The notes: a model not told the origin generated them from the sequence alone. Numbered from the stretch's first letter, positions 13,772-62,992 are shown. The stretch is 64,000 nucleotides of DNA from Parcubacteria group bacterium GW2011_GWA2_43_13 (GCA_000999025.1 LCFM01000005.1:71087-135086); one strand, 5' to 3'. Translations and numbers: made by a program.

Positions 13772-14866
13772 TTATGCTCCATGGCGGAAATGCATAACAT
13801 CTCCATCGCAGACAGCATATTCTTTTCCTTCAACGCGAAGTTTTCCTGAATCTTTTGCGCCTTGTTCGCCATTGTATTCAATAAAGTCCTGATACGCGAT
13901 TACTTCCGCGCGGATAAAATATTTTTCAAAATCAGAATGGATTACTCCTGCGGCCTCTGGCGCTTGCGCGCCTTTTTTAATTGTCCATGCCCTGGTTTCT
14001 TTGGGGCCTGATGTAAAAAATGTTATGAGATCGAGGGTCTCGTATGCTTTTTTGATTAAACGATTCAATCCCGTATCATTGAGTCCCAATTCTTTTAGAT
14101 AGACACTGACTTCTTCTTGATCTAATTCTGAAAGTTCTGCCTCAAGTTTTGCGCAGATGGTAAGTCGTGTGTTGTAGAGACGCCCAAGGGGGGCGTCTTC
14201 GTCTGAGACGCCCAAGGGGGGCGTCTCTACAGGTTGTTCATCACTATTATACACTTCAATAATCGGTTTGAGAGTGAGGAGATTATATGGTTTTAAGAGT
14301 ATCTGTTTGTCGTCAGTGAATGGTTGCGATGAAATAGGAGTGCTATTGTTTAAAATGTGTTCAAGGGTTTGAAATAGTTCAAGCTCTTTGAGCGCGTCTT
14401 TATCTCCGGTTCGCGATTTTGCTTCAAGAGTATCAATACGTTTCAGTACAACAGCAAGGTCGGCCATTGCAAGTTCAGTGATGATGGTTTCGCGATCTGA
14501 TTCTGGATCCACTTTTCCTTCCACATGAATAATGTCGTCATTATGAAAATCACGCAATACATGGCATATTGCATCAACCCCTCTGATGTGAGAAAGAAAT
14601 TGATTTCCCAGACCCTCTCCTTTATGCGCGCCTTTGACAAGTCCGGCGATGTCTACAAATTCGATGGTTGTTGGAATGATTTGAGCCGAATGAGATATGT
14701 CTGAAAGTTTTTGAAGGCGATCATCCGGAACGGCAACAACGCCAACATTCGGGTCAATGGTGCAGAATGGAAAATTTTCCACAGCGACTTGTTTTTTTGT
14801 CAACGCGCGAAAAAGTGTTGATTTGCCAACATTGGGAAGTCCGACGATGCCAATTTGAAGAGACAT
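13772..14866 (-). CDS. ychF: Ribosome-binding ATPase YchF (Obg family), carrying an in-frame palindromic repeat insertion
   Basis: The N-terminus is MSLQIGIVGLPNVGKSTLF, followed by the G4/G5 motifs. A 57-nt hairpin repeat at 14174-14230 is translated in-frame as ...VETPPLGVSDEDAPLGRLYNTR... Confidence 0.9.
   Translation of the reverse strand: MSLQIGIVGLPNVGKSTLFRALTKKQVAVENFPFCTIDPNVGVVAVPDDRLQKLSDISHSAQIIPTTIEFVDIAGLVKGAHKGEGLGNQFLSHIRGVDAICHVLRDFHNDDIIHVEGKVDPESDRETIITELAMADLAVVLKRIDTLEAKSRTGDKDALKELELFQTLEHILNNSTPISSQPFTDDKQILLKPYNLLTLKPIIEVYNSDEQPVETPPLGVSDEDAPLGRLYNTRLTICAKLEAELSELDQEEVSVYLKELGLNDTGLNRLIKKAYETLDLITFFTSGPKETRAWTIKKGAQAPEAAGVIHSDFEKYFIRAEVIAYQDFIEYNGEQGAKDSGKLRVEGKEYAVCDGDVMHFRHGA
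14174..14230. repeat. Family A palindromic element (GTAGAGACG-N-CGTCTCTAC) with an internal tandem duplication, in-frame in ychF
   Basis: The sequence GTAGAGACGCCCAAGGGGGGCGTCTTCGTCTGAGACGCCCAAGGGGGGCGTCTCTAC is read directly. Confidence 0.9.
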
Positions 14867-15023
14867 AAGAGAGGAGACAAATAACAGAAACAAAAAACTA
14901 CAAACAAAAAATAGGTAACATAGGTAACAAGAGACACATAATAAATATCACGAGCAGAGATAAAAAGAAAGTGTGGCCATCCTTTTGTCAGTTTAGGGTG
15001 ACGCGTGTTATGATTTAATAACT

Positions 15024-15215
15024 ATGAAAACATCATCAGAATGGCGGCATGATCTTCGAAGCCCACTTACGGCGATAAAGGGCTATGTTGAGTTTTTATT
15101 GGCGGGAGATGACTGTTCATGCGATGATCAGGCGCAGGAATACATTAAGAATGTTCAGAAGGCGACAGAGAGAATGATTGCTCTGTTGGATGGGTGGAAA
15201 GAAGGTGAGGGATAA
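15024..15215 (+). CDS. Stand-alone histidine-kinase HisKA (H-box) mini-protein, possibly a remnant
   Basis: The 63-aa ORF carries RHDLRSPLTAIKGYVEFL, which matches the phospho-acceptor H-box. It has no ATPase domain, and a repeat element follows immediately. Confidence 0.4.
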   Translation: MKTSSEWRHDLRSPLTAIKGYVEFLLAGDDCSCDDQAQEYIKNVQKATERMIALLDGWKEGEG

Positions 15216-15223
15216 TGAAACAT

Positions 15224-15265
15224 GACACCCCCCCCTCCTTTACAATGAGGGGATAAAGGGGAAGG
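15224..15265. repeat. Family B hairpin element (CCCTCCTTTACAATGAGGGG variant)
   Basis: It lies directly between the mini-ORF and xseA. Confidence 0.6.
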
Positions 15266-15296
15266 TATATGTCATTTGGATTTTGTCATTTCGATT

Positions 15297-16460
15297 ATGC
15301 GTATTTACTCTGTATCAGAATGCGTGCGGGAAATTTCTCTTTATCTTGAACAATTGGGCTCGGTTGTTGTAAAAGGAGAGGTTACTGGATTCAGGCGCGC
15401 GCGCAATGGCCAGTTGGTCTATTTTGAACTCAAAGACGAGGGTTCGCGTTTGCTCTGTTTTTGTTTGGGGTATGAACTGCCAATGGATTTGGAAGACGGG
15501 CAAGAAATTCATGTTGTCGGTGTTCCGCAGTTATTTAAAACAACAGGAGGGTTTCATATTCGCGTGCAAGAAGTGCAGTTGATTGGAGAAGGGGCTTTGC
15601 AACAAGCATATCGAAGGTTATTCGAAAGATTAGAGCGCGAGGGATTATTTGCTCAAGAAAGAAAGAGGTCTCTGCCGCGATTCCCTCAAAGGATTGGCTT
15701 GATTACGTCAGAAGATGCCGCGGCGTATAGTGATTTTATGCGTATTCTTAATAACCGATGGAGCGGTGTTGTGGTACGGTTTTATCCCAGTGGCGTACAG
15801 GGGCCGGGCGCTATCCGACAGATTGTCAATGCGATTGAATATATGAATACGCATGAGCAGGTTGATGTTTTAGTACTCACACGCGGTGGCGGATCACTGG
15901 AGGATTTGCAAGTATTCAATAGCGAGGAGGTGGTGCGCGCGGTGATTGCGTCGCGTGTGCCTGTGGTTGTTGGCGTTGGTCATGAGCGAGACACAACGCT
16001 TGCTGATTATGTTGCTGATGTGCGCGCTTCAACGCCTTCTCATGCCGCAGAACGAGTCGTGCCTGACAAGAGCGTTATTGTACAGGAGATGAGTGATAGT
16101 ATTGTTGCGATGCGATGCGCTATTGCGCGACAGGTTACATTCATATCATCTCGCATATCATATCAGTTGAAAGTGTGCGAACGATGGATGTATTCATTTA
16201 TTTCTGCTGTTTCTCAATACGAATATCTTCTTATTATGAAAATGAGATCATTTGCGCGGATGGCATTAGAGCGTGTCGGAGCATTAGATCGTTTGTTGGG
16301 CTCTCTATCGCCACAGAGTGTTTTGGAGCGAGGGTATTCTATTTCTATAGTGGATGGGAAAGGAATCTGCGATCTTGACGCGTCGTTTGAAGGTAAGACA
16401 ATGGTAACGCGTCTTGCAAAAGGGACACTTGATTCAGTTATTCGTCATGTAAAGTTTTAA
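15297..16460 (+). CDS. xseA: Exodeoxyribonuclease VII large subunit
   Basis: It has an OB-fold N-terminus plus the catalytic domain, and xseB follows. Confidence 0.85.
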   Translation: MRIYSVSECVREISLYLEQLGSVVVKGEVTGFRRARNGQLVYFELKDEGSRLLCFCLGYELPMDLEDGQEIHVVGVPQLFKTTGGFHIRVQEVQLIGEGALQQAYRRLFERLEREGLFAQERKRSLPRFPQRIGLITSEDAAAYSDFMRILNNRWSGVVVRFYPSGVQGPGAIRQIVNAIEYMNTHEQVDVLVLTRGGGSLEDLQVFNSEEVVRAVIASRVPVVVGVGHERDTTLADYVADVRASTPSHAAERVVPDKSVIVQEMSDSIVAMRCAIARQVTFISSRISYQLKVCERWMYSFISAVSQYEYLLIMKMRSFARMALERVGALDRLLGSLSPQSVLERGYSISIVDGKGICDLDASFEGKTMVTRLAKGTLDSVIRHVKF

Positions 16461-16469
16461 GTAAACACT

Positions 16470-16694
16470 ATGCCAAAACAACACTTGCAGGAATTTGATT
16501 TTTCTCACGCGTATCATGAGCTCGAGGGGTTAGTGGCGGAATTCGAAAAAGGAGACATTGAGATTAATCAGGCATTGCCAAAATTTGAGCATGGAGTGAA
16601 ATTAGCGCAAGAGTTGAAAAAATACCTTAAAACAGTTGAAAACAAGGTGGAGAAGATTATACAAGAGAATGACAATAACAATGGAGAAGAATGA
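16470..16694 (+). CDS. xseB: Exodeoxyribonuclease VII small subunit
   Basis: The 74-aa coiled-coil protein sits immediately after xseA. Confidence 0.85.
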   Translation: MPKQHLQEFDFSHAYHELEGLVAEFEKGDIEINQALPKFEHGVKLAQELKKYLKTVENKVEKIIQENDNNNGEE

Positions 16695-16771
16695 ACAGTA
16701 CCTCTAATCCCTTGATATAAGAGGGGTGCTTTTCCGCTCTATTAAGCAAAGATAACACTACGAGTGTTGAC

Positions 16772-16800
16772 TTTTTTATTATAAAGTGCTATAATTGCAC
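16772..16800 (+). promoter_or_regulatory. Consensus sigma70-type promoter (TTGACT - 17 nt - TATAAT) upstream of the secreted-protein gene; a second weaker TTGACG-17-TAGAGT lies about 65 nt downstream
   Basis: Both hexamers and the spacing are read directly from the sequence. Confidence 0.6.
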
Positions 16801-16921
16801 GTTCTCTTGGAAATGCTTTTTTACTCTATTGACGAAAAGGGCGCTTTCAAGTAGAGTAATGTGTTGATTAACCGGTGTTTTATGGCTGATCCAGTCATAA
16901 AAGCGGGATTATACCTTATTT

Positions 16922-18469: not shown

Positions 18470-18552
18470 TAATACTATTGCTTCGTCACCCAAAGGATGA
18501 CTCGCAATGACATCTTTTAAGAGCCCGAGATGTGGCTTCTCGACGCATTCAC

Positions 18553-18583
18553 CCCGACTCCGCCAGCTGGCGGATGTCGGGGT
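18553..18583. repeat. Family D palindrome (CCCCGAC-TCCGCCAGCTGGCGGA-TGTCGGGG)
   Basis: It is a perfect nested palindrome upstream of the GT2 gene. Confidence 0.85.
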
Positions 18584-18603
18584 GTTGTGTTTTTCAGGGG
18601 GGT

Positions 18604-19602: not shown

Positions 19603-19616
19603 TATAGGTCGTGTCG

Positions 19617-19675
19617 GTACCCCCTCCTTTACAAGGAGGGGTGGCTCTCCGCAGGAGAGACGGGGTGGTTTTTTA
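19617..19675. repeat. Family B hairpin element (CCCCTCCTTTACAAGGAGGGG ... GGAGAGACGGGG)
   Basis: The sequence is read directly, intergenic after the GT2 gene. Confidence 0.7.
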
Positions 19676-19805
19676 TAAGGAGAGAGTAGTGCTTGCCCTG
19701 TCCGTAGCTCGAGGTGAAGTGACGAGGGTGAGGGTATACAAACATTGACAAAATTAGGGCTATATAGTATTATGCCGAGTTCGTAATTTAGCCCTATTTT
19801 GTGAT

Positions 19806-20477
19806 ATGAACAATCGTCTTTTTAGTGTGCAAGATGTGATAAAACCGCTTGTATCGAGTTGGGGAATGCTTGTGCTTGGCACAATGCTTTTTGCGTTGCT
19901 CGTGGTTGGTATTACGCTTATTCAGCCACTGAAATATAGCTCAACGGTTCGGCTTCTTGTGATTCAAAAATCAGACAGCGTTGTTGACCCGTATACATCT
20001 TCTCGCGGAGCGGAAAAAATAGCTCAATTGATTACCCAAATTGTGCATTCTGATTCTTTTATGGAAAAGGTTGTGAGTTCAGGGTTTCAGGTGCGAGATG
20101 ATTATGGTTCTGATCTTGATGCACGGAGAAAAAAGTGGAATAAGACCATTGAAGCGCGGCAGGTTCCGGAAACAGCAATTATTGAATTGTTTGTGTATCA
20201 CATTAGTGTTGAGCAGGCGCGCAATATTGTAAAAGCGGCATCAACTGCATTGCAAACAAAGGCAAGTGAATATCACGGAGCAGGGGAAAATGTGCAGTTG
20301 CGCGAGATTGACGGAGCTGTTGTTTCTCGTTTCCCTATAAAACCAAATGTTATTTTGAATGCTATTGCAGGAGTGATTATTGGGTTGTGTGTAAGCGGTG
20401 GGTTTATTGTCGTGCGCGCGCGAAAACGTGCTGATATGAATGAGGCAGTGCGGATTCGGGTGATGGGGGATGTGTAA
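19806..20477 (+). CDS. Wzz/chain-length-determinant-like membrane protein
   Basis: It has an N-terminal transmembrane segment with a Wzz-type motif (SSTVRLLVIQK) and a C-terminal transmembrane segment. Confidence 0.6.
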   Translation: MNNRLFSVQDVIKPLVSSWGMLVLGTMLFALLVVGITLIQPLKYSSTVRLLVIQKSDSVVDPYTSSRGAEKIAQLITQIVHSDSFMEKVVSSGFQVRDDYGSDLDARRKKWNKTIEARQVPETAIIELFVYHISVEQARNIVKAASTALQTKASEYHGAGENVQLREIDGAVVSRFPIKPNVILNAIAGVIIGLCVSGGFIVVRARKRADMNEAVRIRVMGDV

Positions 20478-20552
20478 CACACCCCTGTATCCCCTCTCAA
20501 GAGGGGATGTCGTCCGCACTCCCTCCTTGAGGAGGGGTTGGGGGAGGTGTTA
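20478..20552. repeat. Family B composite MITE-like element with terminal inverted repeats ACACCC...GGGAGGTGT and two internal hairpins (CCCCTCTCAAGAGGGG; CCCTCCTTGAGGAGGG)
   Basis: The sequence is read directly; it marks the left edge of the high-GC island. Confidence 0.85.
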
Positions 20553-20720
20553 TTGGGGGGATGCAAATGTGCAGGAATATACAATCGCATATTGGTAATG
20601 TGCCATTGTATATCTCTGCAGAACCGTGTTTGTAAAACGGAAAGCAGGGATTGTTTCATTGACAATTTCGTTTTTTTCGTAACAAGGCGCTTCGCGCGCC
20701 GTCACAAGGAGCAATTTCCC

Positions 20721-21440
20721 ATGATAAAGGGGATCCTTCTCGCTCTCGTGGCGCTCCTCGGAGCGCCGGTCTCGGGGTTCGCCGGCGATTACGCCGGATT
20801 CCTGTTCTCGACCGAGCAAACCCCGTACGACGAGCAATCGTTCGTGTCGGGTGTCTTTCTCGGTACGAAGCAGGAAAGTGGTTTCTCCGGTTCGCTCGCC
20901 GTCGGCGCGTTTCAACCTCTACAGGAGGTGACGCGCCAGAAGTCCGACATCGCGGTGATCCCGCGAGTCGGGTTCTCCTATGGCGCGTTCGCGACGTCGT
21001 TACGGATTTTCGCTTCGCCGAAGAACGCGTACCACGGTACGCTGGGCGGCGAACTCTCGATACCTACGGAATGGCCGATTGATGTCGTCATTGACGGTGG
21101 GTATACGTTCGGATGGGGATTGAACTCCCCTGACGGACGATACCGTCTCGATGGCTTGAGCGTCGGCACTGGTGTCGAGTTCGGCGGCGGGTCTGTACGC
21201 GCTAAAATCCTTGGCACATTCGAGGCATCCAACGCCTCAGTAATGTCCAAGGGCAAGTCGGCGGTTTCCACCGCTCGACACTGGCACGTCGGTCCACAGA
21301 CAATAATCGTGTTTCGACCCGAAGGTTCAAACTGGTGCATTCAGCCCTCGATTGGGGTTGGTGTCATCGGGAAGAACCTGAAGGGAGAGGAACTCGATCC
21401 GGAATTCTCGTTCGGTTTCCGGGTCTTCACCCGGCGGTAA
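20721..21440 (+). CDS. Secreted Gly-rich protein, putative outer-membrane beta-barrel-like (high-GC island gene 1)
   Basis: It has a signal peptide MIKGILLALVALLGAPVSGFAG, a repeated amphipathic beta-strand pattern, and a C-terminal FSFGFRVF. GC is about 62-65% against about 45% in the flanks, and the RBS AAGGAG precedes the ATG. Confidence 0.5.
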   Translation: MIKGILLALVALLGAPVSGFAGDYAGFLFSTEQTPYDEQSFVSGVFLGTKQESGFSGSLAVGAFQPLQEVTRQKSDIAVIPRVGFSYGAFATSLRIFASPKNAYHGTLGGELSIPTEWPIDVVIDGGYTFGWGLNSPDGRYRLDGLSVGTGVEFGGGSVRAKILGTFEASNASVMSKGKSAVSTARHWHVGPQTIIVFRPEGSNWCIQPSIGVGVIGKNLKGEELDPEFSFGFRVFTRR

Positions 21441-21452
21441 GGAGTCACGGCG

Positions 21453-22695
21453 ATGAGACGTTTCTCATATCTCGGATTGGCGCTCGTATTCGTCGTCGGG
21501 CTGGCCGGGTGCTGGCCCGACTCTGACATTGACAACACCGAAGTGCCGACCGGTCCGCTCACGCTCAAGGTAGACACCAAGAGCGTTGAGCAGATTGCGT
21601 CGCTCATGCAGAGTGGTGCGCTTGCGGCACCGCCTGCGCGGCCTACGAAAGTCAAGGCGACAACGCGTTGGTTTGACAACGCGAATGTTCGCCAATCGGC
21701 ACAATCAGAGGCGAGCATCGGCGAGCTGATTACAGTCGCTCGCCCCCTCGACCGTTCCTATATCGTCAATGTCGCCGACATGGACAACCGGTCACTGACC
21801 GGGATTGTTCGTATGGCGACTCGGGATGGGCTTCCGAAAGCCGTAATCCCGCAACGCGCTTTTCTTCCGATGATGGAAGGGTTGGTGGTCGCAGAGAAGG
21901 TGGACGGTTCGTTCGACTTCCCTACGGCGCCGATCCAACCAGTCGTTGGTACTGGCGTTGACGGGAAAATCTTCATCCTCGAGTTCGAGGTTGAGGTTCC
22001 TGTCGCGACGGTTACCGCCGGCGGAAACGCGGACACGTTGGTCGCGAGCGCGACCGTGTCCCACGCTCTCGGCGATTCTAGATGCGAAAATTCGGGTTCG
22101 GGTACTCGGCACACGCGACGACGCTGGCGTGATCACGGTGGCCACAGGGGAGTGGGTTACTCTCCCCAAAGTGGACGCTACGATCACTGTGTCTATGGCG
22201 TGGGCGAATGGGGTGATCGTCCCTACGCCTGTAACTCCTGTTTCCGGATTCCGCTGGGAGCTGATCCAAGGCGCCCTCGATCTGCTTTACGCGGCAGATG
22301 GGGGCGGAGGAACTCCCAATCCTCCTACTGGAGGTGCCACTATCGAGGACATCGGCGGAAAATGGCAGATTGCAGGGATCACTGGGGCCGGCAATCTGGG
22401 CAAGAACGTCGCGATGTCCGAGGTTTTGCAGGTTGAGGTGATGTGGAAGGCGGATCCGACCGCTAACCCAACCCTCATCCCTGCGACATTCGCAGTCGGA
22501 GTTGACGGGAAACTGTCAGCGACGACTGCCGATATCGTCCCGCGAGGAGGGGTCGGGAACTTTCGATTCTACCTCAAAGACGGATCGCAAGCGTGGTTGA
22601 ACCGGGATTCGGTAACGAAGATCGGTGCGATACGTTTCGCGAATGTCGGTGGGGTGGAAGGGTTCGCAACCCCCTTGACTAACTCTCACGAATGA
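21453..22695 (+). pseudogene. Lipoprotein (lipobox VGLAGC) disrupted by a +1 frameshift near 22075-22081 (high-GC island gene 2)
   Basis: Frame 0 reads ...ATVSHALGDS and then an Arg-rich nonsense tail. The protein-like continuation ...DAKIRVRVLGTRDDAGVITV... is in the +1 frame and runs to 22695. Confidence 0.6.
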
Positions 22696-23408
22696 AAGGG
22701 TGTGTCGTGAAAGTAAGGATTCTCGCGCTCATGTTCACGTTCGTCGTCGGGCTGGCCGGATGTTGGCCCGGAGCGGACACGCCGTCCGCCCCGCCGATTG
22801 ACGACGGCGGATCCGGCGGGGACAACAGCGACGGATCCGGTGGGGGAGGTGGCGTCATCGTTGGAGACAACGACGCCGCTGAGCTTGCCGGATTCGAAAA
22901 AACTTTCGGGACAGAAACCACGTCGGTGTTCGTGTCGTCATCCGACGGCATGGACACCAGGAGCTATGGCCAATGGCGGAAGGATTCCGCATTTGGTGCC
23001 CCCGCGGCATCTCGGGCTGAGATCGAATCCGTCATCGCGGCCGGTGTCTCTGTCGGGCTCCGGATTGCCGGACCCGACGGCAAGCAGACCGCGACGACCC
23101 CGGCAGGGATCGTTTCATGGTTCCCTGGTGACCGGATGGTCGTCAAGACCTCCGGAATCACCGGCGAGCCCATCGAGACGAAGTATTTGCGCGGGGGGCT
23201 CGAGATTGACCCCGCCACCCGAGTTGGGGAAGGAGCAAACTTTGTCGTCTACCAAAAGGGTAGCGGCCAAGTGCTGTACTGGCTCCTCCTCCACGGCGAT
23301 CCGGATAAACCGGTGCCGTACTTCCGCATCTTCGGCGCGGCGGATTGGATGATCTCCAACCGCAGTGTCGCGGGCAAGCTGGAGTACGGATTCTTTAAGC
23401 GAGAATGA
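22692..23408 (+). CDS. Lipoprotein, paralog of the previous gene (same FVVGLAGCWP signal/lipobox; Gly/Ser/Asp-rich linker) (high-GC island gene 3)
   Basis: The signal-peptide region is nearly identical to the upstream gene, and the GC is high. Confidence 0.6.
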   Translation: MKGCVVKVRILALMFTFVVGLAGCWPGADTPSAPPIDDGGSGGDNSDGSGGGGGVIVGDNDAAELAGFEKTFGTETTSVFVSSSDGMDTRSYGQWRKDSAFGAPAASRAEIESVIAAGVSVGLRIAGPDGKQTATTPAGIVSWFPGDRMVVKTSGITGEPIETKYLRGGLEIDPATRVGEGANFVVYQKGSGQVLYWLLLHGDPDKPVPYFRIFGAADWMISNRSVAGKLEYGFFKRE

Positions 23409-23429: not shown

Positions 23430-23490
23430 AACCCGTTCAACTGTGTGCTGAAAACGTTCAGTATTACAGTTGACGGGTTTATTTTTTTAT
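23430..23490 (+). terminator. Terminator after the island (AACCCGTTCAACTGT ... ACAGTTGACGGGTT followed by TTTATTTTTTT), with a nested CTGAA-AACG-TTCAG hairpin
   Basis: The stem-loop plus T-run is read directly. Confidence 0.65.
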
Positions 23491-23561
23491 TGTATAATAT
23501 TTTGTTTTACATGGCCTCCTCAATCCTTCCTTTCGAGAGGATGTAGGGGGTGTAGAGACGT

Positions 23562-23607
23562 GGCGGTGCCACGTCTTGTCGGAGACGTCCCATCGGGACG
23601 TCTCTAC
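23562..23607. repeat. Family A element (GTAGAGACGTGGCGGTGCCACGTCTTGTCGGAGACGTCCCATCGGGACGTCTCTAC), preceded by a family B fragment (23525-23561)
   Basis: The sequence is read directly; it marks the right edge of the island, upstream of the ligase-like gene. Confidence 0.85.
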
Positions 23608-23616
23608 ATACAAAAT

Positions 23617-25206
23617 ATGTCTTCATTTTTTAAAATATATTGGCAGTGGATTGCTATAGGGTTGGTCGCGTCTGGAGGAGTTGTATTGATAGGAGGGAAA
23701 ACAGCTCTTATTGTTTTTGTGTTGGTTGTTATTTCCGCCACACTGTTTATCAAACCAATGTGGCTGATGTATCTATTAGTGCCGTCGCTGTTTTTAGAAG
23801 CAGAGCAGTTTTCAATTTATTTTGGCAACTGGCGTGGGCGCGGGTATCATTTTTTGATTGGAGTGTTGGTTGTGAGGATGGTTTGGGAATTTATAAGCAA
23901 GAGAATAACACCTTCCGCCCCTTCGGGGCACCTTCCTCAAGGAAGGAGCCGTCGAATCCCCTCTCGAGAGGGGGTAGGGGGTGTGTCTGGGTTGGACAAG
24001 GCGTTGATTGCGTTTTTGTCAGTGCAGGCGGTTGCGATTTTGGTTTCGCCTGATAAAATGTTCAGCATAAAAATTTGGGTATTGCAGGTGTTACTTACCC
24101 TGCTGTTTTGGTGTGTTCGATATTTTGTCAAAACATCCACAGAATGGAAACGTTTGCTGAATATCTTTTTAATATCAAGCGTTGTTGAGGCGTTAATCGG
24201 GTTTTGGCAAGTGTTTGCGTTTTATCTTCAAAAAACAACTGGCATAGTTGTGCGCTGGGGAGAGGTGTTTCACGCGCAGATTTTGCAATTTGGTAGGCCG
24301 TACGGCACATTTGTTGAAGCGGACTGGTATGGCGCGTTTATGGCAATTCCATTGATGATGAGTGTTGTTTTGATGGCAGGCGCGCAGTCGAAAAAAACGC
24401 GTGCAGTGTATGGGGTATTAGGTATGGTTTTTGGTATTGCAGTAATCATCTCCGGTGTGCGTGCTGCATGGATCGCGGTGATTGTTGCGAGTGTAGTTGG
24501 TGTGTTTGTGTTGCGGGGCACGAATGGGGCACGAACCCGCCGAATCGGTGGGCGAATACCTCACCCCCCCCCTCTCCTTGTAAAGGAGAGGGGGACGACG
24601 ACACCTCCCTCCCTCCCTCCTCAAGGAGGGAAGATGTCGCATGTATTATACGGAGAGTATAAGCATTTGGTGGGGTTAGGCAGTGTGTGCGCTTTGGTTA
24701 TTGTGGTTCTACTCGCAATAGCATCGCCTACATGGGTTGGGCAGATCGGCGAACGATTTATTAGTATATTTAACCCTTCTACATGGGCGCATGAGCCGCG
24801 GGTCGCGACAACTCAAAAGGCGTTTGAATTGATTGCGCAATCGCCGATTATTGGTCATGGTCCGGGTAGTTATAAAATTTTAGGGATTGTGCCTGATGTT
24901 GATTCATCGCAGTATGATTATTATGGCGTTTATCCGTATTTGACGAATTATTTTTTAACGGTGTTGCATGATTCAGGTATTATCGGTTTTGCTGTGTTTT
25001 TGTGGTTGTTGTGGGAAGGGGTGAAGTTTAGGGCAAGATCTTATAAAGGAGAGGGGGCGGCGGTTGTGATGGGGGTGGTGGTGCTGATGATTGCATATTT
25101 GATTACAACCGGGTTTTGGTTGGGAATGACATGGTTTTTGTTTGCTTTATTATGCACAAATAGCTCACGAACCCGCCGAATCGGCGGGCGAATGGCTCAC
25201 GAATGA
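23617..25206 (+). CDS. O-antigen ligase/polymerase-like (Wzy_C-type) polytopic membrane protein with three in-frame repeat insertions
   Basis: It has multiple transmembrane segments. The repeats are translated in-frame as ...PSAPSGHLPQGRSRRIPSREGVGGVSG..., ...RGTNGARTRRIGGRIPHPPPLLVKERGTTTPPSLPPQGGK... and a C-terminal ...SRTRRIGGRMAHE. Confidence 0.6.
   Translation: MSSFFKIYWQWIAIGLVASGGVVLIGGKTALIVFVLVVISATLFIKPMWLMYLLVPSLFLEAEQFSIYFGNWRGRGYHFLIGVLVVRMVWEFISKRITPSAPSGHLPQGRSRRIPSREGVGGVSGLDKALIAFLSVQAVAILVSPDKMFSIKIWVLQVLLTLLFWCVRYFVKTSTEWKRLLNIFLISSVVEALIGFWQVFAFYLQKTTGIVVRWGEVFHAQILQFGRPYGTFVEADWYGAFMAIPLMMSVVLMAGAQSKKTRAVYGVLGMVFGIAVIISGVRAAWIAVIVASVVGVFVLRGTNGARTRRIGGRIPHPPPLLVKERGTTTPPSLPPQGGKMSHVLYGEYKHLVGLGSVCALVIVVLLAIASPTWVGQIGERFISIFNPSTWAHEPRVATTQKAFELIAQSPIIGHGPGSYKILGIVPDVDSSQYDYYGVYPYLTNYFLTVLHDSGIIGFAVFLWLLWEGVKFRARSYKGEGAAVVMGVVVLMIAYLITTGFWLGMTWFLFALLCTNSSRTRRIGGRMAHE
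23908..23984. repeat. Family B composite element (ACACCTTCC...CCTTCCTCAAGGAAGG...CCCCTCTCGAGAGGGGG...GGGGGTGTG), in-frame in the ligase-like gene
   Basis: Sequence read directly. Confidence 0.85.
24524..24640. repeat. Compound insertion: family C (CACGAACCCGCCGAATCGGTGGGCGAAT) plus family B (CCTCTCCTTGTAAAGGAGAGG; CCCTCCTCAAGGAGGG), in-frame
   Basis: The sequence is read directly; a second family C copy lies at 25163-25202. Confidence 0.85.
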
Positions 25207-27725: not shown

Positions 27726-27755
27726 ATAGAGAGACGCCCCAGGGGGGCGTCTCTA
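27726..27755. repeat. Family A element (TAGAGAGACGCCCCAGGGGGGCGTCTCTAC) between convergent GT4 and folD
   Basis: The sequence is read directly and may act as a bidirectional terminator. Confidence 0.85.
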
Positions 27756-28658
27756 CGGTTTTGTGATATTGAGACAATTATTCATAGTATTTTTAAGGAG
27801 AAGTGCTACTGTAACCGGACCGACACCGCCAGGTACTGGAGTGATCGCTCCTGCGTGCTTTTTTAGTGATTCAATATCAGCATCTCCTTTAATTGCCGTA
27901 GTTCCGTTATGTTCAATTCTACTAATGCCAACATCAATAATAATGGCATCTTTTTTTGTATATTCTTTTGTGAGAATATGAGGTTTTCCAAGAGCGATGA
28001 TAAGAATATCGTACTGCACACATTTTTTATTCAGCTCTGTAAAATGGTCTGCTTTAATGTTTTGGCGCGAGAGGAGGGTGGCAAGGGGAATAAACAGAAT
28101 ATCTGATTTGCACATAATTGCGGCGGATAACGGCACATCCTTACGCCTCTGGAGAGGGGATACGTCTCCCTTTCCTTTATAAGGAGAGTCCGCGAGCTGG
28201 CGGAGGGGTGAGGTGTTAAGCACATTTTGTAAACATTCCACCACACTCATCACGGTAACTGGTTGCGGGAAGGAAGGGTCTCCTAAGTGTTTGATATTTT
28301 CCGGATGAAATCCGTCTGCATCTTTATCCGGACGAATGCGTTGAATAAGTGTATCAGGATTAAGATGCCCTGGAAGTGGGAGTTGAACAATAATGCCGTG
28401 AATATCAGAGTCATTATTGAGAAAATCAATGCATTCTATGATATCATCTTGGCTATCAGTTGCTTTGAATCGGTACAGATGCGGGGTAATGCCTGCTTTA
28501 TCTGCTGTGTGAATTTTTCTTTTTACATATATCTCTGATGAGGGATCATTGCCAATCAAAATAATCGCAAGTCCGGGAGTCACATTGCGTTCGACAATAG
28601 TGCGCCTGATATCGTGCAAAATATCAGACGCGATTTTTTTACCGTTGATGATGTACAT
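27753..28658 (-). CDS. folD: Bifunctional methylene-THF dehydrogenase/cyclohydrolase with an in-frame repeat insertion
   Basis: It has the FolD N-terminus (ASDILHDIRRTI...GLAIILIGNDPSSEIYVKRK). The repeat at 28148-28218 is translated as ...[26 protein letters not shown]... Confidence 0.9.
   Translation of the reverse strand: MYIINGKKIASDILHDIRRTIVERNVTPGLAIILIGNDPSSEIYVKRKIHTADKAGITPHLYRFKATDSQDDIIECIDFLNNDSDIHGIIVQLPLPGHLNPDTLIQRIRPDKDADGFHPENIKHLGDPSFPQPVTVMSVVECLQNVLNTSPLRQLADSPYKGKGDVSPLQRRKDVPLSAAIMCKSDILFIPLATLLSRQNIKADHFTELNKKCVQYDILIIALGKPHILTKEYTKKDAIIIDVGISRIEHNGTTAIKGDADIESLKKHAGAITPVPGGVGPVTVALLLKNTMNNCLNITKP
28148..28218. repeat. Family B/D hybrid element (CTCCCTTTCCTTTATAAGGAGAG + TCCGCGAGCTGGCGGA)
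   Basis: Sequence read directly. Confidence 0.8.
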
Positions 28659-30058: not shown

Positions 30059-30187
30059 AAAATTAAAGATGAAAAACAAAAAGTAAAAATGATGTATGTT
30101 GCCAAATGTCAAGTATCAAATTTCAGTTTTCAAATTATGGTACTTGGCGGAAATATTTGAAAACTGGCAACTGAAAATTGATATTTG

Positions 30188-31897
30188 TTATGAAGTTATA
30201 TGTTTAATCATATATATTTTTTCTAATTCATATCCTAATTTTTTATAGTATTCTCGTGTTCCAATGCCGGAAATGACAGCCATTTTTTTGTAGCCATGAT
30301 CTCGTGCAATGCTTTCTGCTTTTTGGATGAGTTGTTTGCCCAAGCCAGTATGCTGGGAAGTGTACACCTCTTTGCCGTTCAACGGGGTTAGTTGACCATA
30401 ACTATGCACTTCTCGTATGATAGCACATCCTTTAAGTTCTGAAATAAACGGATGGGTGATGTTATCTGGTAGGCGAAGGCGGAGAAATGCGTGGAGGATA
30501 CGGCTTTCGCCCCCCCTCCTGCCCGAGGAGGGGGTAGGGGGTGGTGGGAGGATATTTATTTTTTCATACCTCACCCTACCCTCTCCTATTTTAGGAGAGG
30601 GTGACGACGACGTCTCAAACGATAAAAAGTATTCTTTCCCGCCGGTTGTGTCAATCGGTTCAATGAAACATTCAGCGTTACTTGAATCAATAGATTGATT
30701 TCTTCCCAACTCCTCTCTGCATCGTATACATTTGCACAGCAATCCTTTTTTTTGCATGTGCGCTTGAATATGCTCGCGCAGATTTGAAATTTTTGAACCG
30801 GCAATAATACTGGTCGCCGGAATATCACGGATGAGTCGGGCAATACGGACGTAGGGTGGGATAATGGTATGTTTGACATGCGCAAGAAGGGTTATCAATT
30901 CATCGTCTGTGTATGGTTTCCATATACCATCGCGCCACATTTTTTCCATAATGGGCGTGAAAGAGGGGAGTACTGTGGGGTATATTTTCATTTCATCTGG
31001 TTTAAAATCCGGATGCTGGAAAAGTTCGTTGTACATCTCGGTATCTTTTTGGAGATTTGACCCTGGAAGGTTTGGCATGGTATGGTAATTGATTTTAAAG
31101 CCAGCGTCTTTGAGCCAACGCGTTGCATCACGAACCTGATCCCGAGTTTGGTCACGTTTAATAAGGGTGAGAACATCATCATGCGTTGATTGTACGCCTA
31201 ATTGCACGCGGGTCGCGCCAAGGGCGCGCATCCGTTTTATTTCTGTTTTTGTAATATGATCGGGCCGGGTCTCAAGAGTAAGTCCAACACATCGGTGTTG
31301 CGCTGTTTGGTTGATGTCATGCGTTTCTTTTAGTAGTTGATTATGGGATGAGCGGTATGGTGTACAGTGCGTAGTATCATAATGGAAAATAAAATCATTC
31401 ATTGCCTGAAAACAACGTTTAATAAACCATGTTTGATACCGGCGTGGGTAAAATGACCATGTCCCACCAAGTACAATAAGTTCGATTTTTTCCGGCCGAT
31501 GCCCATTTTCATAAAATGAGTGCAAACGGATGACAATTTGTTTATAGGGGTCAAATTGTTGTTTAAGCGCGCGTGCCGCGGCTGGTTCATTAGAGAGGTA
31601 GCTTTTGGGCATGCCACGCTCTGTAGGGCAGTACACGCACCTGCCGGGGCAAGGGAAGGGCTTGGTAAGCACAGTGACGGGTGCGACTCCTGAAATAGTT
31701 CTGATAGTGCGGCGTTTTAACATGTGCAAAAAAAGCGGGTCTGGCGTAACTTCTCCTTTTTTGATACGTTCATGGTAGTCCTTCAGTAGTGCCCGATTGG
31801 GTGGGATAGGGATATGTAAAGTACGCGCCCATTTGCGTTTTGCCGCATGGAGATCGTTTTTTGTATGGATTGTTTCGGAGAGAAGGTGGATAAGCAT
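30188..31897 (-). CDS. Elp3-homolog: radical-SAM plus GNAT acetyltransferase (tRNA carboxymethyluridine synthase-like), with an in-frame repeat insertion
   Basis: It has a radical-SAM CxxxCxxC (CPGRCVYCPTE) and a C-terminal GNAT fold. The repeat block at 30509-30620 is translated as ...SSSPSPKIGEGRVRYEKINILPPPPTPSSGRRGGESR... Confidence 0.8.
   Translation of the reverse strand: MLIHLLSETIHTKNDLHAAKRKWARTLHIPIPPNRALLKDYHERIKKGEVTPDPLFLHMLKRRTIRTISGVAPVTVLTKPFPCPGRCVYCPTERGMPKSYLSNEPAAARALKQQFDPYKQIVIRLHSFYENGHRPEKIELIVLGGTWSFYPRRYQTWFIKRCFQAMNDFIFHYDTTHCTPYRSSHNQLLKETHDINQTAQHRCVGLTLETRPDHITKTEIKRMRALGATRVQLGVQSTHDDVLTLIKRDQTRDQVRDATRWLKDAGFKINYHTMPNLPGSNLQKDTEMYNELFQHPDFKPDEMKIYPTVLPSFTPIMEKMWRDGIWKPYTDDELITLLAHVKHTIIPPYVRIARLIRDIPATSIIAGSKISNLREHIQAHMQKKGLLCKCIRCREELGRNQSIDSSNAECFIEPIDTTGGKEYFLSFETSSSPSPKIGEGRVRYEKINILPPPPTPSSGRRGGESRILHAFLRLRLPDNITHPFISELKGCAIIREVHSYGQLTPLNGKEVYTSQHTGLGKQLIQKAESIARDHGYKKMAVISGIGTREYYKKLGYELEKIYMIKHITS
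30509..30620. repeat. Double family B element (CCCCCTCCTGCCCGAGGAGGGGG ... CCCTCTCCTATTTTAGGAGAGGG)
   Basis: Sequence read directly. Confidence 0.85.
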
Positions 31898-31902
31898 AGG
31901 GC

Positions 31903-32040
31903 AATCCTAATCTACTAATACATCCTAATCTGCTAATACGAGTGGGATGTCTCGTCTGTAAAGATTGGGGTAAATATTGGGGTAAATATTGTATCTATAG
32001 CGTGTTATTTGTAGATTCGGATGAATTCGTATATTAGGAT
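31903..32040. repeat. Family E intergenic palindromic element (GCAATCCTAATCTACTAAT... / ...TGTAGATTCGGATG...ATTAGGATTG) in the divergent Elp3/Trm9-like promoter region
   Basis: The arms are read directly from the sequence. Confidence 0.75.
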
Positions 32041-32046
32041 TGATTT

Positions 32047-32829
32047 ATGTCAGTAGTAGAAATATATAACCAAATCGCTGCTCAATTTTCTAAAACCCGC
32101 AATAGAAGTTGGGTTGATTTTGATCTGTTTAAAAAAGTTATTCAGAGGCAAGTGGCAATTGTTAAACATCAATTGTCAGTGTTGGATGTTGGGTGTGGGA
32201 ATGGAAGGTTGTATTCGTTTTTTGTAGAGACGGGATTAACCCCGTCTCTACACTATAGAGGTATTGACGCAAGTGTAGGTATGATTGAGCAAGCGAAGAA
32301 GTGGTATCCGGAGTGTGATTTTCGCGTTGCTGATATGCGGGAAGTGCCATGTGATGATAACAGTTTTGATATAGTTTTTGCGATTGCGTCTTTTAACCAC
32401 ATGTTGACCAAGGAAGACCAAGAAAAAGCATTATCAGAAATATTTCGCGTACTAAAGCCGTGCGGGTATGTGTGCATGACAAACTGGAATTTATGGCGAT
32501 TGACATTAAAAGAAAAATCGTGGTGGTATTATGTGTTTTGTAGAGACGTGTCCCTGGCGCGTCTCATTCGGCGAGGTAAAGATGATGATTGTTTACAGAG
32601 AGACGCCGCAGGGGGTCGTCTCTGCGATCATTCCATGAGAGTTGTCTTGACCCGCTGGAACAACCATGAACTCCCATATTACGCGTTTACTTTACGAGAA
32701 TTAAAGCGCATGGTCAAGCAGGCTGGGTTGAGTGTAGAAACGGCATTGTATAGCAAAAACGGACACAAAGCGCATTGGTGGAATGGAAAAAATATCATAC
32801 TGATTGCGCGCAAAAAGCACTTGACATGA
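32047..32829 (+). CDS. Trm9/ALKBH8-like class I SAM methyltransferase with two in-frame repeat insertions
   Basis: The N-terminal motif IYNQIAAQFSKTRNRSW plus LDVGCGNGR is typical of Trm9-type methyltransferases. The repeats at 32224-32251 and 32539-32627 are translated in-frame. Confidence 0.65.
   Translation: MSVVEIYNQIAAQFSKTRNRSWVDFDLFKKVIQRQVAIVKHQLSVLDVGCGNGRLYSFFVETGLTPSLHYRGIDASVGMIEQAKKWYPECDFRVADMREVPCDDNSFDIVFAIASFNHMLTKEDQEKALSEIFRVLKPCGYVCMTNWNLWRLTLKEKSWWYYVFCRDVSLARLIRRGKDDDCLQRDAAGGRLCDHSMRVVLTRWNNHELPYYAFTLRELKRMVKQAGLSVETALYSKNGHKAHWWNGKNIILIARKKHLT
32224..32251. repeat. Family A element (GTAGAGACGGGATTAACCCCGTCTCTAC)
   Basis: It is a perfect palindrome inside the methyltransferase CDS. 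Confidence 0.9.
32539..32627. repeat. Two adjacent family A elements (GTAGAGACGTGTCCCTGGCGCGTCTC ... CAGAGAGACGCCGCAGGGGGTCGTCTCTG)
   Basis: The sequence is read directly inside the methyltransferase CDS. Confidence 0.85.
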
Positions 32830-35636: not shown

Positions 35637-35720
35637 AACCTCATCCTACCCTCTCCTTGTAAAGGAGAGGGAGATGACGACTCCCCCTCTCTGATAGCTT
35701 CCGCCAAAGGCGGATATGCC
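35637..35720. repeat. Family B element (CCTACCCTCTCCTTGTAAAGGAGAGGGAG ... TTCCGCCAAAGGCGGATA)
   Basis: The sequence is read directly, between convergent genes. Confidence 0.85.
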
Positions 35721-36764: not shown

Positions 36765-36844
36765 AGATCTGCAAATTTACTATTCGGATATAGATGGCAC
36801 GTAAGGGTTATTATCAGTTTTCAGTTATCAAATGTCAAATTTGA

Positions 36845-36860
36845 TCCGCCAGCTGGCGGA
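36845..36860. repeat. Family D palindrome TCCGCCAGCTGGCGGA
   Basis: It is a perfect 16-bp palindrome; further copies lie at 18561-18576 and 48644-48659, and a variant at 44575-44590. Confidence 0.9.
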
Positions 36861-36886
36861 GATATTTGATAACTGGCATTTGTAAG

Positions 36887-54342: not shown

Positions 54343-56082
<1,740 letters not shown>

Positions 56083-56109: not shown

Positions 56110-56148
56110 GGAGAGACGCATCGTTGATGCGTCTCTCCTTTTTTTTGG
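56110..56148 (+). terminator. Terminator GGAGAGACGCATC-gttg-GATGCGTCTCTCC followed by TTTTTTTT (the stem contains the GAGACG/CGTCTC core of family A)
   Basis: The hairpin is read directly. Confidence 0.8.
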
Positions 56149-57004: not shown

Positions 57005-57094
57005 CCATCTGGAGGTCTTTTTATTTTATCTTCAAGGTCGTTTATCGGATGTGTTGAAATTTTAATTGAGTGTGGTACAGTATGTATGCATTCT

Positions 57095-58537: not shown

Positions 58538-58640
58538 TAGCAATCCGAATCTACAAATACCATCCTAATCTACTAATCTACGAATGGCTGAGCTATGAGG
58601 TATTGGTAGATTCGAATGATATTAGTATATTAGGATTGCT
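58538..58640. repeat. Family E palindromic element (GCAATCCGAATCTACAAATACCATCCTAATCTACTAAT ... GGTAGATTCGAATGATATTAGTATATTAGGATTGC) between convergent pyk and mutL
   Basis: The inverted arms are read directly. Confidence 0.8.
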
Positions 58641-60410: not shown

Positions 60411-60418
60411 AGTAGGTA

Positions 60419-62992
60419 TTATGTGAGGTGTTGTTTCAGCTCATCGAGTTTTTGGAGAGCTTCTATTGGAGTGAGGGTATTTGGATTGATATTTTTGAGT
60501 TGTTCTATCAGGTTCTGATGAGCGCAGGCCGAAAATAAGTGGGGTTGAATAACTACCGTAGAGACGGGGTTAACCTCGTCTCTACGCGTTTGGGTGTTAT
60601 TTTGTTCTAAATTTGTTAGTATCATTTTTGCTTGTAAAATGACCTCTTTGGGTAATCCGGCAAGCCGAGCTACTTCAATGCCGTAGGATTTATCTATACC
60701 GCCAGGCACAACTTGATGTAAAAATAATACCCCTTCTTGCTCATTTTCTTTTACTGCTACGCGATAATTGTGGCATCTTTCTAATTGTTCGCCGAGTTCG
60801 ATGAGTTCGTGATAATGCGTAGCGAACAAAATTTTTGTTCGGCTTGTTGTATGAAAATATTCAATCACTGCCCATGCAATAGACACGCCATCATACGTTG
60901 ATGTCCCTCTGCCTAATTCGTCAAAAATGACTAAACTATTATCAGTCGCATTGCTTAAAATATACGCCGCCTCCTGCATTTCGACCATAAAGGTTGATTG
61001 TCCACGCGCAAGATCATCTGATGCGCCAACGCGCGTGAAAATGCGATCAATAATACTGATAGATGCGTGGTCTGCAGGAACAAAAGAACCTATTTGTGCC
61101 ATCAATACAATCAATGCGTTTTGCCTGAGATATGACGATTTTCCACTCATGTTTGGCCCGGTAAGAATGATGATTTGCTGATCAGTAGAATTAAGAGCAA
61201 GATCGTTTGGGATATACTGTTGGGAAATAATTTTTTCTATCACCGGATGTCGTCCGTTGCGGATAGTAATAATTGAATCAGAAGTAATATGTGGCTTTGT
61301 ATAGCGATAAGAAATGGCATTGTGCGCAAACGCGCAATACACATCAACTTCCGCTATCGCTTTACCGATGTTTTGTATTGTTTTAAGATAAGGCGTAAGA
61401 AAAGAAATGCATTGATCAAAGAGTTCTTTTTCAAGTATCAGTATTTTTTCTTCTGCTGTTAAGACCTTTTCTTCATATATTTTTAAATCAGGGGTAATAA
61501 AACGCTCTGCATTTACTAATGTTTGGCGGCGTTCAAAATAATCAGGAACTCGAGTCAACTGGCCTTTGGAAATTTCAATAAAGTAGCCAAAAATTTTATT
61601 GAATTTTATTTTTAAATTGTCAATGCCTGTTTTTTTACGTTCTTCTTCTTGGTAGCGCGAGAGCCATTCTTTGCCTCCATAGGCAATATCGCGCCATTCA
61701 TCTAATTCCGGGCTGTATCCTTTGCGTATCACTCCTCCGTGGTCAAAGAGAGCTGGCGGATTATCAGAAATCATCTGATTGAGAATGGAAAGCGGTTCTG
61801 TGTATGTTTGCTGATCAAAAAATGTGTTCAGTTCTTGAATTCGAGTGGAATGCATCTGCGATGCCATATCACATAATTGTGGGATCTGATCAAATGTGGT
61901 TCGGAGAGCGTGGAGATCCCGCGGTCCTACCCTATTTGCTCCAATTTTTGCCGCAATTCTTTCCAAATCGTTCATACGAGTAAGATGTGGTATGAGTCGG
62001 GTGATTATTGACATTGATTGGGTCATATCTTCCACTGCTTCTATACGCATTTCAATGGATTTTTTATTCAACAGGGGATGCATCAGCCACGATCGCAACA
62101 TTCTTCCGCCCATAGGCGTTTTGGTTGTATCTAAAACATCAAATAAAGAACCTGTGGTGTCATGCGATCTTACGGTTGTGAATAATTCAAGATTGCGGAT
62201 AGTGGTTTCATCTAACAGCATGGTCTCGTTCCATTGGTACTGTTTGATAGTGGTAATATGGGCGAGTGATGTTTTTTGCGTTTCTTTTAAATACACAATC
62301 AAACGCGCGGCCGCTTCTGTTTGTTGATCATTCTTTTGTAATCCAAAGGAATCAATTGAATTGATATGAAAATGGCGAGTGATGGTTTCATCAGCAGACA
62401 ACGTCAGGATTGGCGTTGTTACAAGGTAATACGCGCCAAGTTCTTGCGAAGGCATGGTAACGAGTGATTCATGAACCAGCACTTCTGACGGTTCAAGCCG
62501 TTTCAGCAGTGTATACGCGATATGCGTTGGTGCTTGGCAGACAAAAAAATCACCAGTGGTGATGTCGCAAAACGCCAATCCCGTGTATTCTTCGCCTTGA
62601 ATGAATGCGGCGCAGTAATTATTTTTTTTACCTTTCATCACAGCTTCGGAAAACGTTGTGCTTGGCGTGATTATGCGGACAACTTCCCGTTGTACTATTT
62701 TTCCTTGCTCTGGTTCTGTGGTTTGTTCCACAATCGCGACTCGTTTACCCGCTTTTGTGAGTTCCGCGATATATGCTTCAGCCGCATGGTGAGGTATGCC
62801 TGCCATGGGTATTTCATGTGGTGTGTTTTTGAATCTGGCTGTAAGCGTTAAATCCAAGATCCGTGATCCTTCAAGCGCGTCTTGTCCAAACATCTCGTAA
62901 AAATCGCCCAAACGAAAAAACACAATCGCGTCCAGATGTTGATTTTTAATAGCCCAATATTGTTCCAGTAACGGAGTGGTCTCATTCTGCAT
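60419..62992 (-). CDS. mutS: DNA mismatch repair protein MutS, with an in-frame family A repeat near the C-terminus
   Basis: It has the mismatch-binding N-terminus and the Walker A GPNMSGKSS. The repeat at 60557-60584 is translated as ...TRRDEVNPVSTVV... Confidence 0.95.
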   Translation of the reverse strand: MQNETTPLLEQYWAIKNQHLDAIVFFRLGDFYEMFGQDALEGSRILDLTLTARFKNTPHEIPMAGIPHHAAEAYIAELTKAGKRVAIVEQTTEPEQGKIVQREVVRIITPSTTFSEAVMKGKKNNYCAAFIQGEEYTGLAFCDITTGDFFVCQAPTHIAYTLLKRLEPSEVLVHESLVTMPSQELGAYYLVTTPILTLSADETITRHFHINSIDSFGLQKNDQQTEAAARLIVYLKETQKTSLAHITTIKQYQWNETMLLDETTIRNLELFTTVRSHDTTGSLFDVLDTTKTPMGGRMLRSWLMHPLLNKKSIEMRIEAVEDMTQSMSIITRLIPHLTRMNDLERIAAKIGANRVGPRDLHALRTTFDQIPQLCDMASQMHSTRIQELNTFFDQQTYTEPLSILNQMISDNPPALFDHGGVIRKGYSPELDEWRDIAYGGKEWLSRYQEEERKKTGIDNLKIKFNKIFGYFIEISKGQLTRVPDYFERRQTLVNAERFITPDLKIYEEKVLTAEEKILILEKELFDQCISFLTPYLKTIQNIGKAIAEVDVYCAFAHNAISYRYTKPHITSDSIITIRNGRHPVIEKIISQQYIPNDLALNSTDQQIIILTGPNMSGKSSYLRQNALIVLMAQIGSFVPADHASISIIDRIFTRVGASDDLARGQSTFMVEMQEAAYILSNATDNSLVIFDELGRGTSTYDGVSIAWAVIEYFHTTSRTKILFATHYHELIELGEQLERCHNYRVAVKENEQEGVLFLHQVVPGGIDKSYGIEVARLAGLPKEVILQAKMILTNLEQNNTQTRRDEVNPVSTVVIQPHLFSACAHQNLIEQLKNINPNTLTPIEALQKLDELKQHLT
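60557..60584. repeat. Family A element (GTAGAGACGGGGTTAACCTCGTCTCTAC)
   Basis: It is a near-perfect palindrome inside mutS. Confidence 0.9.

Follow-up and report, generated by a model that had tools for sequence, protein, structure and literature searches.

Palindromes within and between genes of a candidate phyla radiation bacterium are probable double-foot GTAG REPs of the RAYT group 4 family

A stretch of 64,000 nt from the genome of Parcubacteria group bacterium GW2011_GWA2_43_13 (LCFM01000005.1:71087-135086), hereafter the window, carries a family of short inverted repeats that lie both between genes and inside ychF, mutS and a methyltransferase gene. These elements show every testable defining sequence feature of the double-foot and dimeric GTAG-tagged repetitive extragenic palindromes (REPs) that accompany group 4 of the tyrosine transposases associated with REPs (RAYTs), and we therefore assign them to this known kind of repeat, found here in a genome of the candidate phyla radiation (CPR). 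Our proposed explanation, to which we give a probability of roughly 80%, is that they are GTAG-tagged double-foot REPs and head-to-head REP dimers cognate to the HUH-tyrosine enzymes of RAYT/TnpA_REP subclass 2.4. The YchF protein encoded in the window has a counterpart with 100% identity in Candidatus Jacksonbacteria bacterium RIFCSPLOWO2_02_FULL_43_9, a metagenome-assembled genome of the CPR/Patescibacteria, and we infer that such an enzyme acts, or once acted, in this Jacksonbacteria lineage.

A reading of this DNA made from its sequence without database searches (the sequence-only reading) had described a dispersed family of palindromes with inverted arms and variable centres, and both features were borne out. 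The arm GTAGAGACG has 10 exact matches in the window, both strands counted, against 0.03 expected, and in none of 100 shuffled sequences did 10 or more occur; every one of these matches is one arm of an inverted pair. Hairpins of the form AGACG-N8-13-CGTCT likewise number 10, against 0.13 in 200 Markov simulations, whose maximum was 2. The window total is 10 hairpins at 8 loci, with 5 of the hairpins and 4 of the loci being intragenic.

The repeating unit is 28 nt long and is bounded by the feet GTAG and CTAC. Between them are a constant lower stem (AGACG/CGTCT), a variable upper stem whose two sides are complementary (CCCC/GGGG, TCCC/GGGA, TGGC/GCCA, CATC/GATG or GGxTT/AAxCC) and an apex of 3-6 nt; the conserved arm thus spans 9 nt, GTAG plus AGACG. 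The centres both vary and covary. Three elements are single units (perfect or near-perfect 28-nt palindromes at 32224-32251, 60558-60585 and 27726-27756), and a further two form tight doublets; in one more doublet a 34-nt spacer separates the hairpins, and the last element is a terminator-like derivative (Table 1). In the doublets, GTAG and CTAC stand on the outer sides only. The spacing between arms had been given as anything from 8 to 30 nt, but no such continuum exists: single elements have a gap of 10 nt, doublets one of 38-39 nt. The positions first reported were correct to within 1-10 nt, the intergenic doublet starting at 23552 rather than 23562 and the mutS copy being off by one. The family has three of the marks by which GTAG REPs are recognised, namely a palindromic unit of 20-40 bp ending in GTAG, copies far above chance, and complementary changes in the stem.

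Table 1. Positions and structure of the palindromic elements in the 64-kb window.
Element	Position	Strand	Structure and setting
Head-to-head REP doublet in ychF	14174-14230		GTAG-hairpin 14178-14198, 7-nt spacer, hairpin 14206-14226-CTAC
Head-to-head REP doublet, intergenic	23552-23607		Two different upper stems, TGGC/GCCA and TCCC/GGGA
Single REP with degenerate left foot ATAGAGAGACG	27726-27756		Between convergent glycosyltransferase and folD genes
Single double-foot REP in class I methyltransferase gene	32224-32251		GTAGAGACG-GGATTAACCC-CGTCTCTAC
REPIN-like dimer in methyltransferase gene	32540-32627		GTAG-hairpin 32540-32565, 34-nt spacer, hairpin-CTGC 32597-32627
Terminator-like element after groEL	56110-56146	+	13-bp stem GGAGAGACGCATC / GATGCGTCTCTCC, 3-nt loop, T8 tail
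Single double-foot REP in mutS	60558-60585		Linker after MutS domain V; gene on minus strand

The genes that carry copies are ychF, mutS and the gene of a class I S-adenosylmethionine (SAM) methyltransferase that adjoins an Elp3-like gene. All intragenic copies had been called in-frame, and this held: the reading frames stay open and the conserved domains downstream are intact. From copy to copy, translation uses either of two frames and either strand (VET..., xRD...), and the third frame of the foot holds a TAG, the other two being free of stops (GTA-GAG-ACG for VET, xGT-AGA-GAC-G for xRD). Being in frame is thus the outcome of survivorship rather than something inherent in the element, copies persisting only in permissive linkers. 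A motif selected at the protein level was rejected, since the reading frame and the strand are not the same in all copies.

In ychF, on the minus strand, the doublet encodes VETPPLGVSDEDAPLGRLY within a variable linker, and the segment 14170-14234 folds as a single long hairpin (-43.9 kcal/mol). Homologues of 352 aa lack about 14 aa at this position (alignment A1); a relative whose YchF is 87% identical retains the doublet, and one at 83% has a different palindrome there, CCCTCTCCTC-ATA-GAGGAGAGGG. The single element of the methyltransferase gene encodes VETGLTPSL, in a loop after methyltransferase motif I that is about 6-8 residues longer than in most homologues (alignment A4). The dimer further along the same gene encodes CRDVSLARLIRRGKDDDCLQRDAAGGRLC and folds as one long hairpin (32536-32630, -42.3 kcal/mol); its whole 29-aa segment is present in an 81%-identical homologue (P0241) and absent from one at 61% (P0242). 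The mutS element encodes RRDEVNPVST. It is also present in the mutS ortholog of a related metagenomic locus, L269 (89% identical), where a further 30-nt palindrome is nested at its TTAA centre. That nested palindrome belongs to another family (TCCGCC-N4-GCGGATCCGC-N4-GGCGGA; L269 4550-4579 and L243 9038-9067), sits exactly at the centre of the REP and keeps the frame, its 30 nt making 10 codons.

Between genes, the doublet at 23552 lies about 10 nt upstream of what is most likely the start codon of a Wzy-like gene, an ATG at 23617 that, read directly from the sequence, is in frame with the open reading frame (ORF) 23470-25206; a comparison of this start with the Wzy gene of a relative (L244) was uninformative, the two genes not being orthologous. 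The folD stop codon is the TAG of the right foot in the 27726 copy (reverse complement of 27753-27755), and the same copy is terminator-like on the plus strand. After groEL, the hairpin 56110-56138 is followed directly by T8 and has feet GGAG/CTCC instead of GTAG/CTAC. It is probably a REP-derived intrinsic terminator, its place in the family being suggested solely by the common core AGAGACG...CGTCTCT.

If these elements are, or were, mobile, related genomes are expected to differ in which sites are occupied, and the presence/absence differences that the sequence-only reading had called for were found. Across 17 syntenic kb, a relative with 83% identical YchF (L243) has no copy and one with 64% identical YchF (L244) has a single copy at another site. 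The L269 locus has an extra copy right after mutS, and P0242 lacks the methyltransferase dimer. Among related phage contigs, a site that is occupied in L014, L043 and L100 is empty in L099 and L045. A metagenome scan for the centre GGRTTAACCY returned 31 Jacksonbacteria-like loci (L247-L277) with CPR-like GC content. These contain 62 hairpins in 252 kb, or about one every 4 kb, many of them head-to-head doublets; when the 31 copies by which the loci were selected are set aside, the density is about one hairpin per 8 kb.

The family is neither private to this genome nor new. A palindrome scan for GTAGAGACG-N(8-39)-CGTCTCTAC found at least 120 stretches in IMG/VR and at least 120 in GTDB contigs with one genome per species; the counts on genome loci below refer to 120 GTDB loci selected by the palindrome alone. 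Among the matches listed, the exact 28-29 nt palindrome GTAGAGACG-N10/11-CGTCTCTAC is present in viral contigs and in many phyla, the genomes including Nostocales and other cyanobacteria, Bacteroidota, Chloroflexota, Spirochaetes, Omnitrophota, Zixibacteria, Geobacter, Acidobacteria and Rhodothermales. The GC content of these hosts ranges from 31 to 74%, and the arm is the same in all. The centre measures 10 or 11 nt in 229 of the 234 unique copies in these matches; its pairs 1-3 are 89-97% complementary with 3-4 pair types, and pair 5, at the dyad axis, is 89% complementary, so that the symmetry reaches the axis. The outermost pair, which had looked as if it covaried, is not real (31% complementarity).

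In the flanks, A is under-represented at -1 and T at +1. We found no target-site duplication: direct repeats of 2-6 nt flank the copies at chance frequency, and there is no flank consensus. A miniature inverted-repeat transposable element (MITE) or other element derived from an insertion sequence (IS), expected to have such a duplication at its terminal inverted repeats, was rejected on this ground. A sequencing adaptor or artefact was rejected as well, as copies occur in finished isolate genomes and their centres covary. Rfam gave nothing at the palindromes in the window and in 18 palindrome-bearing loci, where only two tRNAs and one riboswitch reached the gathering score. A literature search with GTAGAGACG, CGTCTCTAC and GTAGAGAC returned primers and short hairpin RNAs only, and the palindrome sequence was not found in the searched text and supplements of PMC3733652.

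The palindromes occur in several settings. Many of the palindrome-bearing viral contigs (L001-L120, for example L003, L005, L008 and L021) are Mu-like, with Mu portal, Mu F and gp36 genes, and in them the palindromes bracket the capsid gene or separate structural genes. In Nostocales (L130, L138, L144, L155, L156, L206, L210, L225) the palindrome lies within a longer repeat, ...AACCCTT-palindrome-ATTCTTTTC..CAGATGTCTA..., whose sequence suggests a composite, MITE-like element. Elsewhere, half-elements (foot, arm and half centre) are repeated in tandem two or three times before one complete palindrome (L185 1419-1463; L210 882-927; L163 1733-1778; L148 4324-4372; L235 1472-1514; L245 4531-4587, the last translated as VETHGRVETHGRVETHGRAS). 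These arrays look like slippage at microhomology between flank and centre.

All-against-all clustering of the ORFs from 120 viral and 120 genome loci revealed no universal neighbour gene, only shared phage structural genes, a Mu-like portal gene among them. A RAYT-like ORF, however, touches or contains the palindrome in 6 of the 120 genome loci (L140, L141, L174, L203, L228 and L237). This cluster was recognised by probing all ORFs with E. coli RayT (phmmer), which gave E values of 2e-7 for L141 and 7.8e-5 for L140 and non-significant ones of 0.011-0.11 for L203, L237 and L228; the L174 ORF was not matched by the probe and was recruited through an earlier ORF cluster. The proteins carry the motifs MPNH[LF]H, Y[HN]DH[IV]IR and NYIxNNPxxW. 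Their matches to Pfam Y1_Tnp are weak. For the L141 protein and four database homologues the best NCBIfam match is NF047646 (REP_Tyr_transpos), with E values of 1e-15 for L141 and 3.5e-9 to 3e-17 for the homologues, all of these matches being below the curated cut-off. The sequence-only reading had pointed to a transposase of the HUH/IS200 type that recognises hairpins; such an enzyme gene does accompany the palindrome in these other genomes, and none was found in the window.

Palindrome and RAYT gene are arranged in several ways. L141 is a classic REPtron with a palindrome copy on each side of the gene; a copy lies at the start of the RAYT gene in L174 and L228 and 77 nt upstream of it in L278; and in L140, L203, L237, L245, L246, L279 and L281 the palindrome is in frame inside the RAYT gene, between the HUH and Tyr motifs. 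A RAYT profile search retrieved at least 7,986 homologues, named 'REP element-mobilizing transposase RayT' by JGI, and among the best 120 of these at least 7,986 the palindrome GTAGAGACGCACGGCCGTGCGTCTCTAC is encoded in frame between HUH and Tyr in 87, as VETHGRASL or, in more general form, VET...SL or RD...VST.

Further repeats accompany these genes. Just downstream of the RAYT gene in L228 (5218-5580) are seven footless hairpins (AGACGCCCGGCCGTGCGTCT) with a period of 57 nt, and short tandem DNA repeats flank the in-gene REP of RAYTs P0124, P0126, P0132, P0207 and L203 (812-1600), being translated as low-complexity runs (HDSHDS..., HGTHGT..., SPEQSPEQ...); P0207 matches the His-Xaa-Ser repeat model NF038313. 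In four of the six contexts that were read, the RAYT gene lies inside a type I restriction-modification (R-M) locus, next to hsdS and/or hsdR (L245 3178-3798; L246 10001-10681; L279 6001-6660) or beside hsdS fragments (L280 6001-6690), and in the other two (L278, L281) it lies among housekeeping genes. It is possible, judging from this gene order, that the RAYT clade is functionally coupled to type I R-M loci; the word 'restriction' is absent from PMC6006769, the survey of these enzymes discussed below.

By analogy with the enzymes of E. coli and of IS200/IS605, a RAYT would bind the folded hairpin together with GTAG on single-stranded DNA, for example on the lagging-strand template, and would cleave and rejoin the DNA, so that copies spread. 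They would then persist where they do no harm: in intergenic spacers, where some may now serve as terminators or as donors of stop codons, and in flexible protein linkers, provided that the net insertion keeps the frame and uses a stop-free frame.

Several points weigh against this explanation. To our knowledge, E. coli TnpA_REP, a member of subclass 2.2, is the only such enzyme known to bind and cleave its REP as single-stranded DNA, and we know of no published RAYT activity on this type of REP. No RAYT was found in the window, in L243, in L244 or in the 31 related metagenome loci, which together make up about 350 kb; at the frequency found in other genomes (6 of 120 loci) only about 1.5 matches would be expected, so that the absence carries no significance. 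Only one RAYT, P0150 of locus L245, is labelled 'Paceibacterota'. It comes with five palindromes within 9.5 kb, of which four lie in frame inside genes, and its CPR label may be a binning error, as its named close relatives are all Bacteroidota. The centres in the window are heterogeneous, unlike the CACGGCCGTG centre that accompanies most RAYT genes, and the location of half of the window hairpins within genes is unusual for palindromes termed 'extragenic', although in the viral loci only 36% of copies are inside long ORFs, against 76% of random positions. Finally, symmetry up to the dyad axis is not explained by selection for a hairpin alone. Quentin et al. (2018, PMC6006769) pointed out that a double foot could derive from an inverted dimer by central deletion, which would explain the symmetry seen here, and the single 28-nt units do look like collapsed dimers.

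The same observations can be read differently. It is conceivable, if rather unlikely, that no resident RAYT is needed for the palindromes to spread or persist in the CPR lineage: they might be relics of one since lost, be generated or homogenised by replication template-switching at inverted repeats, or be mobilised by an enzyme supplied by a phage or host. The REPs linked to subclass 2.4 would then have proliferated in a CPR genome of about 1 Mb lacking a RAYT of its own, to about one hairpin per 6-8 kb and into ychF, mutS and a tRNA-modification methyltransferase gene, either by the action in trans of an enzyme from a phage, host or neighbour or by RAYT-independent template switching. The failure to find a RAYT in the related DNA and the symmetry of the palindromes to their axis both favour this, as do the resemblance of the half-element arrays to slippage products, the abundance of palindromes in Mu-like phage contigs and the published existence of genomes that have REPs but no tnpAREP gene (PMC6006769). 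However, the DNA searched amounts to perhaps a third of one genome, spread across several relatives, with the low expectation already given, and the conservation of a 9-nt arm across phyla argues for recognition by a conserved protein.

That the hairpins are primarily functional RNA or DNA structures under selection (terminators, stabilisers of mRNA 3' ends, operon punctuation) rather than selfish repeats is, in our judgement, improbable. The copies at 56110 and 27730 do score as intrinsic-terminator-like, and some stems contain G-T pairs. In phage and Bacteroidales loci the palindromes are often tightly placed between consecutive genes. Yet copies situated well inside ychF, mutS and the methyltransferase gene cannot be terminators, the elements are strand-symmetric, and the same 28-mers recur at many unrelated loci, with differences between close relatives; moreover, such roles are a known secondary use of REPs and are compatible with the mobile-REP explanation. 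As for the proposal that a Type IIS (Esp3I/BsmBI-like) R-M system, or another site-specific double-strand nuclease cutting on both sides of the hairpin, targets the paired GAGACG/CGTCTC motifs, it is hardly tenable, for although the arms hold head-to-head CGTCTC sites, the conserved 9 nt include GTAG and are longer than a 6-bp site, GAGACG/CGTCTC outside the elements occurs 14 times against 17.8 +/- 4.1 expected for the whole window and so is neither avoided nor enriched, no R-M gene is among the roughly 20 window ORFs scanned, and the family, present in many phyla and in phages, is found together with RAYT genes. The likeness to Esp3I/BsmBI sites appears incidental, and of the two halves of the earlier interpretation only the mobile hairpin with its HUH enzyme survives.

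Double-foot REPs of RAYT group 4 thus have a much wider distribution than could be gathered from the 2018 survey of cultured genomes, occurring in phages and in many uncultured phyla, apparently including the CPR/Patescibacteria, with a foot and lower stem of 9 nt that stay the same in genomes of 31-74% GC. Annotators should note that short odd peptides of the form VET...SL or RRD...VST in CPR or Bacteroidota proteins are REP insertions in linkers, neither functional motifs nor assembly errors. Should this lineage truly be without a RAYT, it would be a good system in which to study how REPs spread or persist without one.

The window and its relatives hold further repeats. Another hairpin family, CCCTCTCCTT-N3-AAGGAGAGGG, in which CTA often comes just before the hairpin, has copies in the window (24570-24592, 30579-30601, 35649-35671) and in L243 (3292-3314, 8575-8597), with 8 more in L248-L277. 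One of the copies is inside the Elp3-like gene, and one of those in L243 lies in the YchF linker that holds the REP doublet in the window. Long imperfect inverted repeats with arms of 33-35 nt, unrelated to the GTAGAGACG family, are found between genes at 10573-10662, 30103-30187 and 36822-36875. The region 20000-23400 is a block of 55% GC in a 43% GC genome, with overlapping ORFs on both strands; ORFs 20538-21440, 21453-22436 and 22692-23408 have no Pfam match, and Rfam finds nothing in this region. At 30188-32829, the Elp3-like gene, of radical-SAM/GNAT type, adjoins the methyltransferase gene in divergent orientation, a neighbour that fits the 'Trm9-like' label given to the methyltransferase, as the two would form a tRNA wobble-uridine modification pair.

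Among known repeats, the palindromic elements of Rickettsia are similar in being palindromic repeats that lie in frame in protein genes of a reduced genome, but they are 100-150 bp long, CGTC-tagged (PMC3733652) and unrelated in sequence, and have no known transposase. REPINs (Bertels & Rainey 2011, PMC3116915) consist of two inverted REPs that form one long hairpin, as do the doublets at 14174, 23552 and 32540, although the spacers here are 5-7 nt or 34 nt. Members of the GTAG super-family described by Di Nocera et al. (2013, PMC3733652), too, carry the GTAG tag. Their stems measure 6-13 bp and show complementary changes, their head-to-head dimers are separated by 1-5 bp or 20-100 bp, the TAG of a foot is used as a stop codon, and in-frame intragenic copies lie in replication and repair genes, of which mutS is the example here. 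The window elements differ from these in carrying the tag at both ends, base-paired, and CPR bacteria are not among the phyla in that work.

The double foot is what subclass 2.4 of TnpA_REP supplies, which corresponds to RAYT group 4 in the grouping of Bertels et al. 2017 (Quentin et al. 2018, PMC6006769). The match rests on architecture and enzyme motifs, the text of that paper printing no exact consensus, and it is on these grounds that the following likenesses are to be read. The window elements depart from the published REPs of this subclass in their host, a CPR bacterium (Jacksonbacteria) for which about 350 kb of related DNA yielded no RAYT, in the intragenic position of 5 of the 10 hairpins and in unusually varied upper stems. 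In other respects they would fit it closely. The long hairpins of subclass 2.4 REPs bear GT[AG]G as their 5' foot and C[TC]AC as their 3' foot, as here. Their enzymes carry the motifs NH[IFV]H, WQ and YIxNNP, which recur in the RAYTs that accompany our palindrome in other genomes, and are abundant in Cyanobacteria and Bacteroidetes and scattered in other phyla, the same host range that the palindrome has. REPs in frame within the tnpAREP gene itself, between HuH and Y, are unique to this subclass, and it is there that the palindrome is found in the RAYT genes of those genomes.

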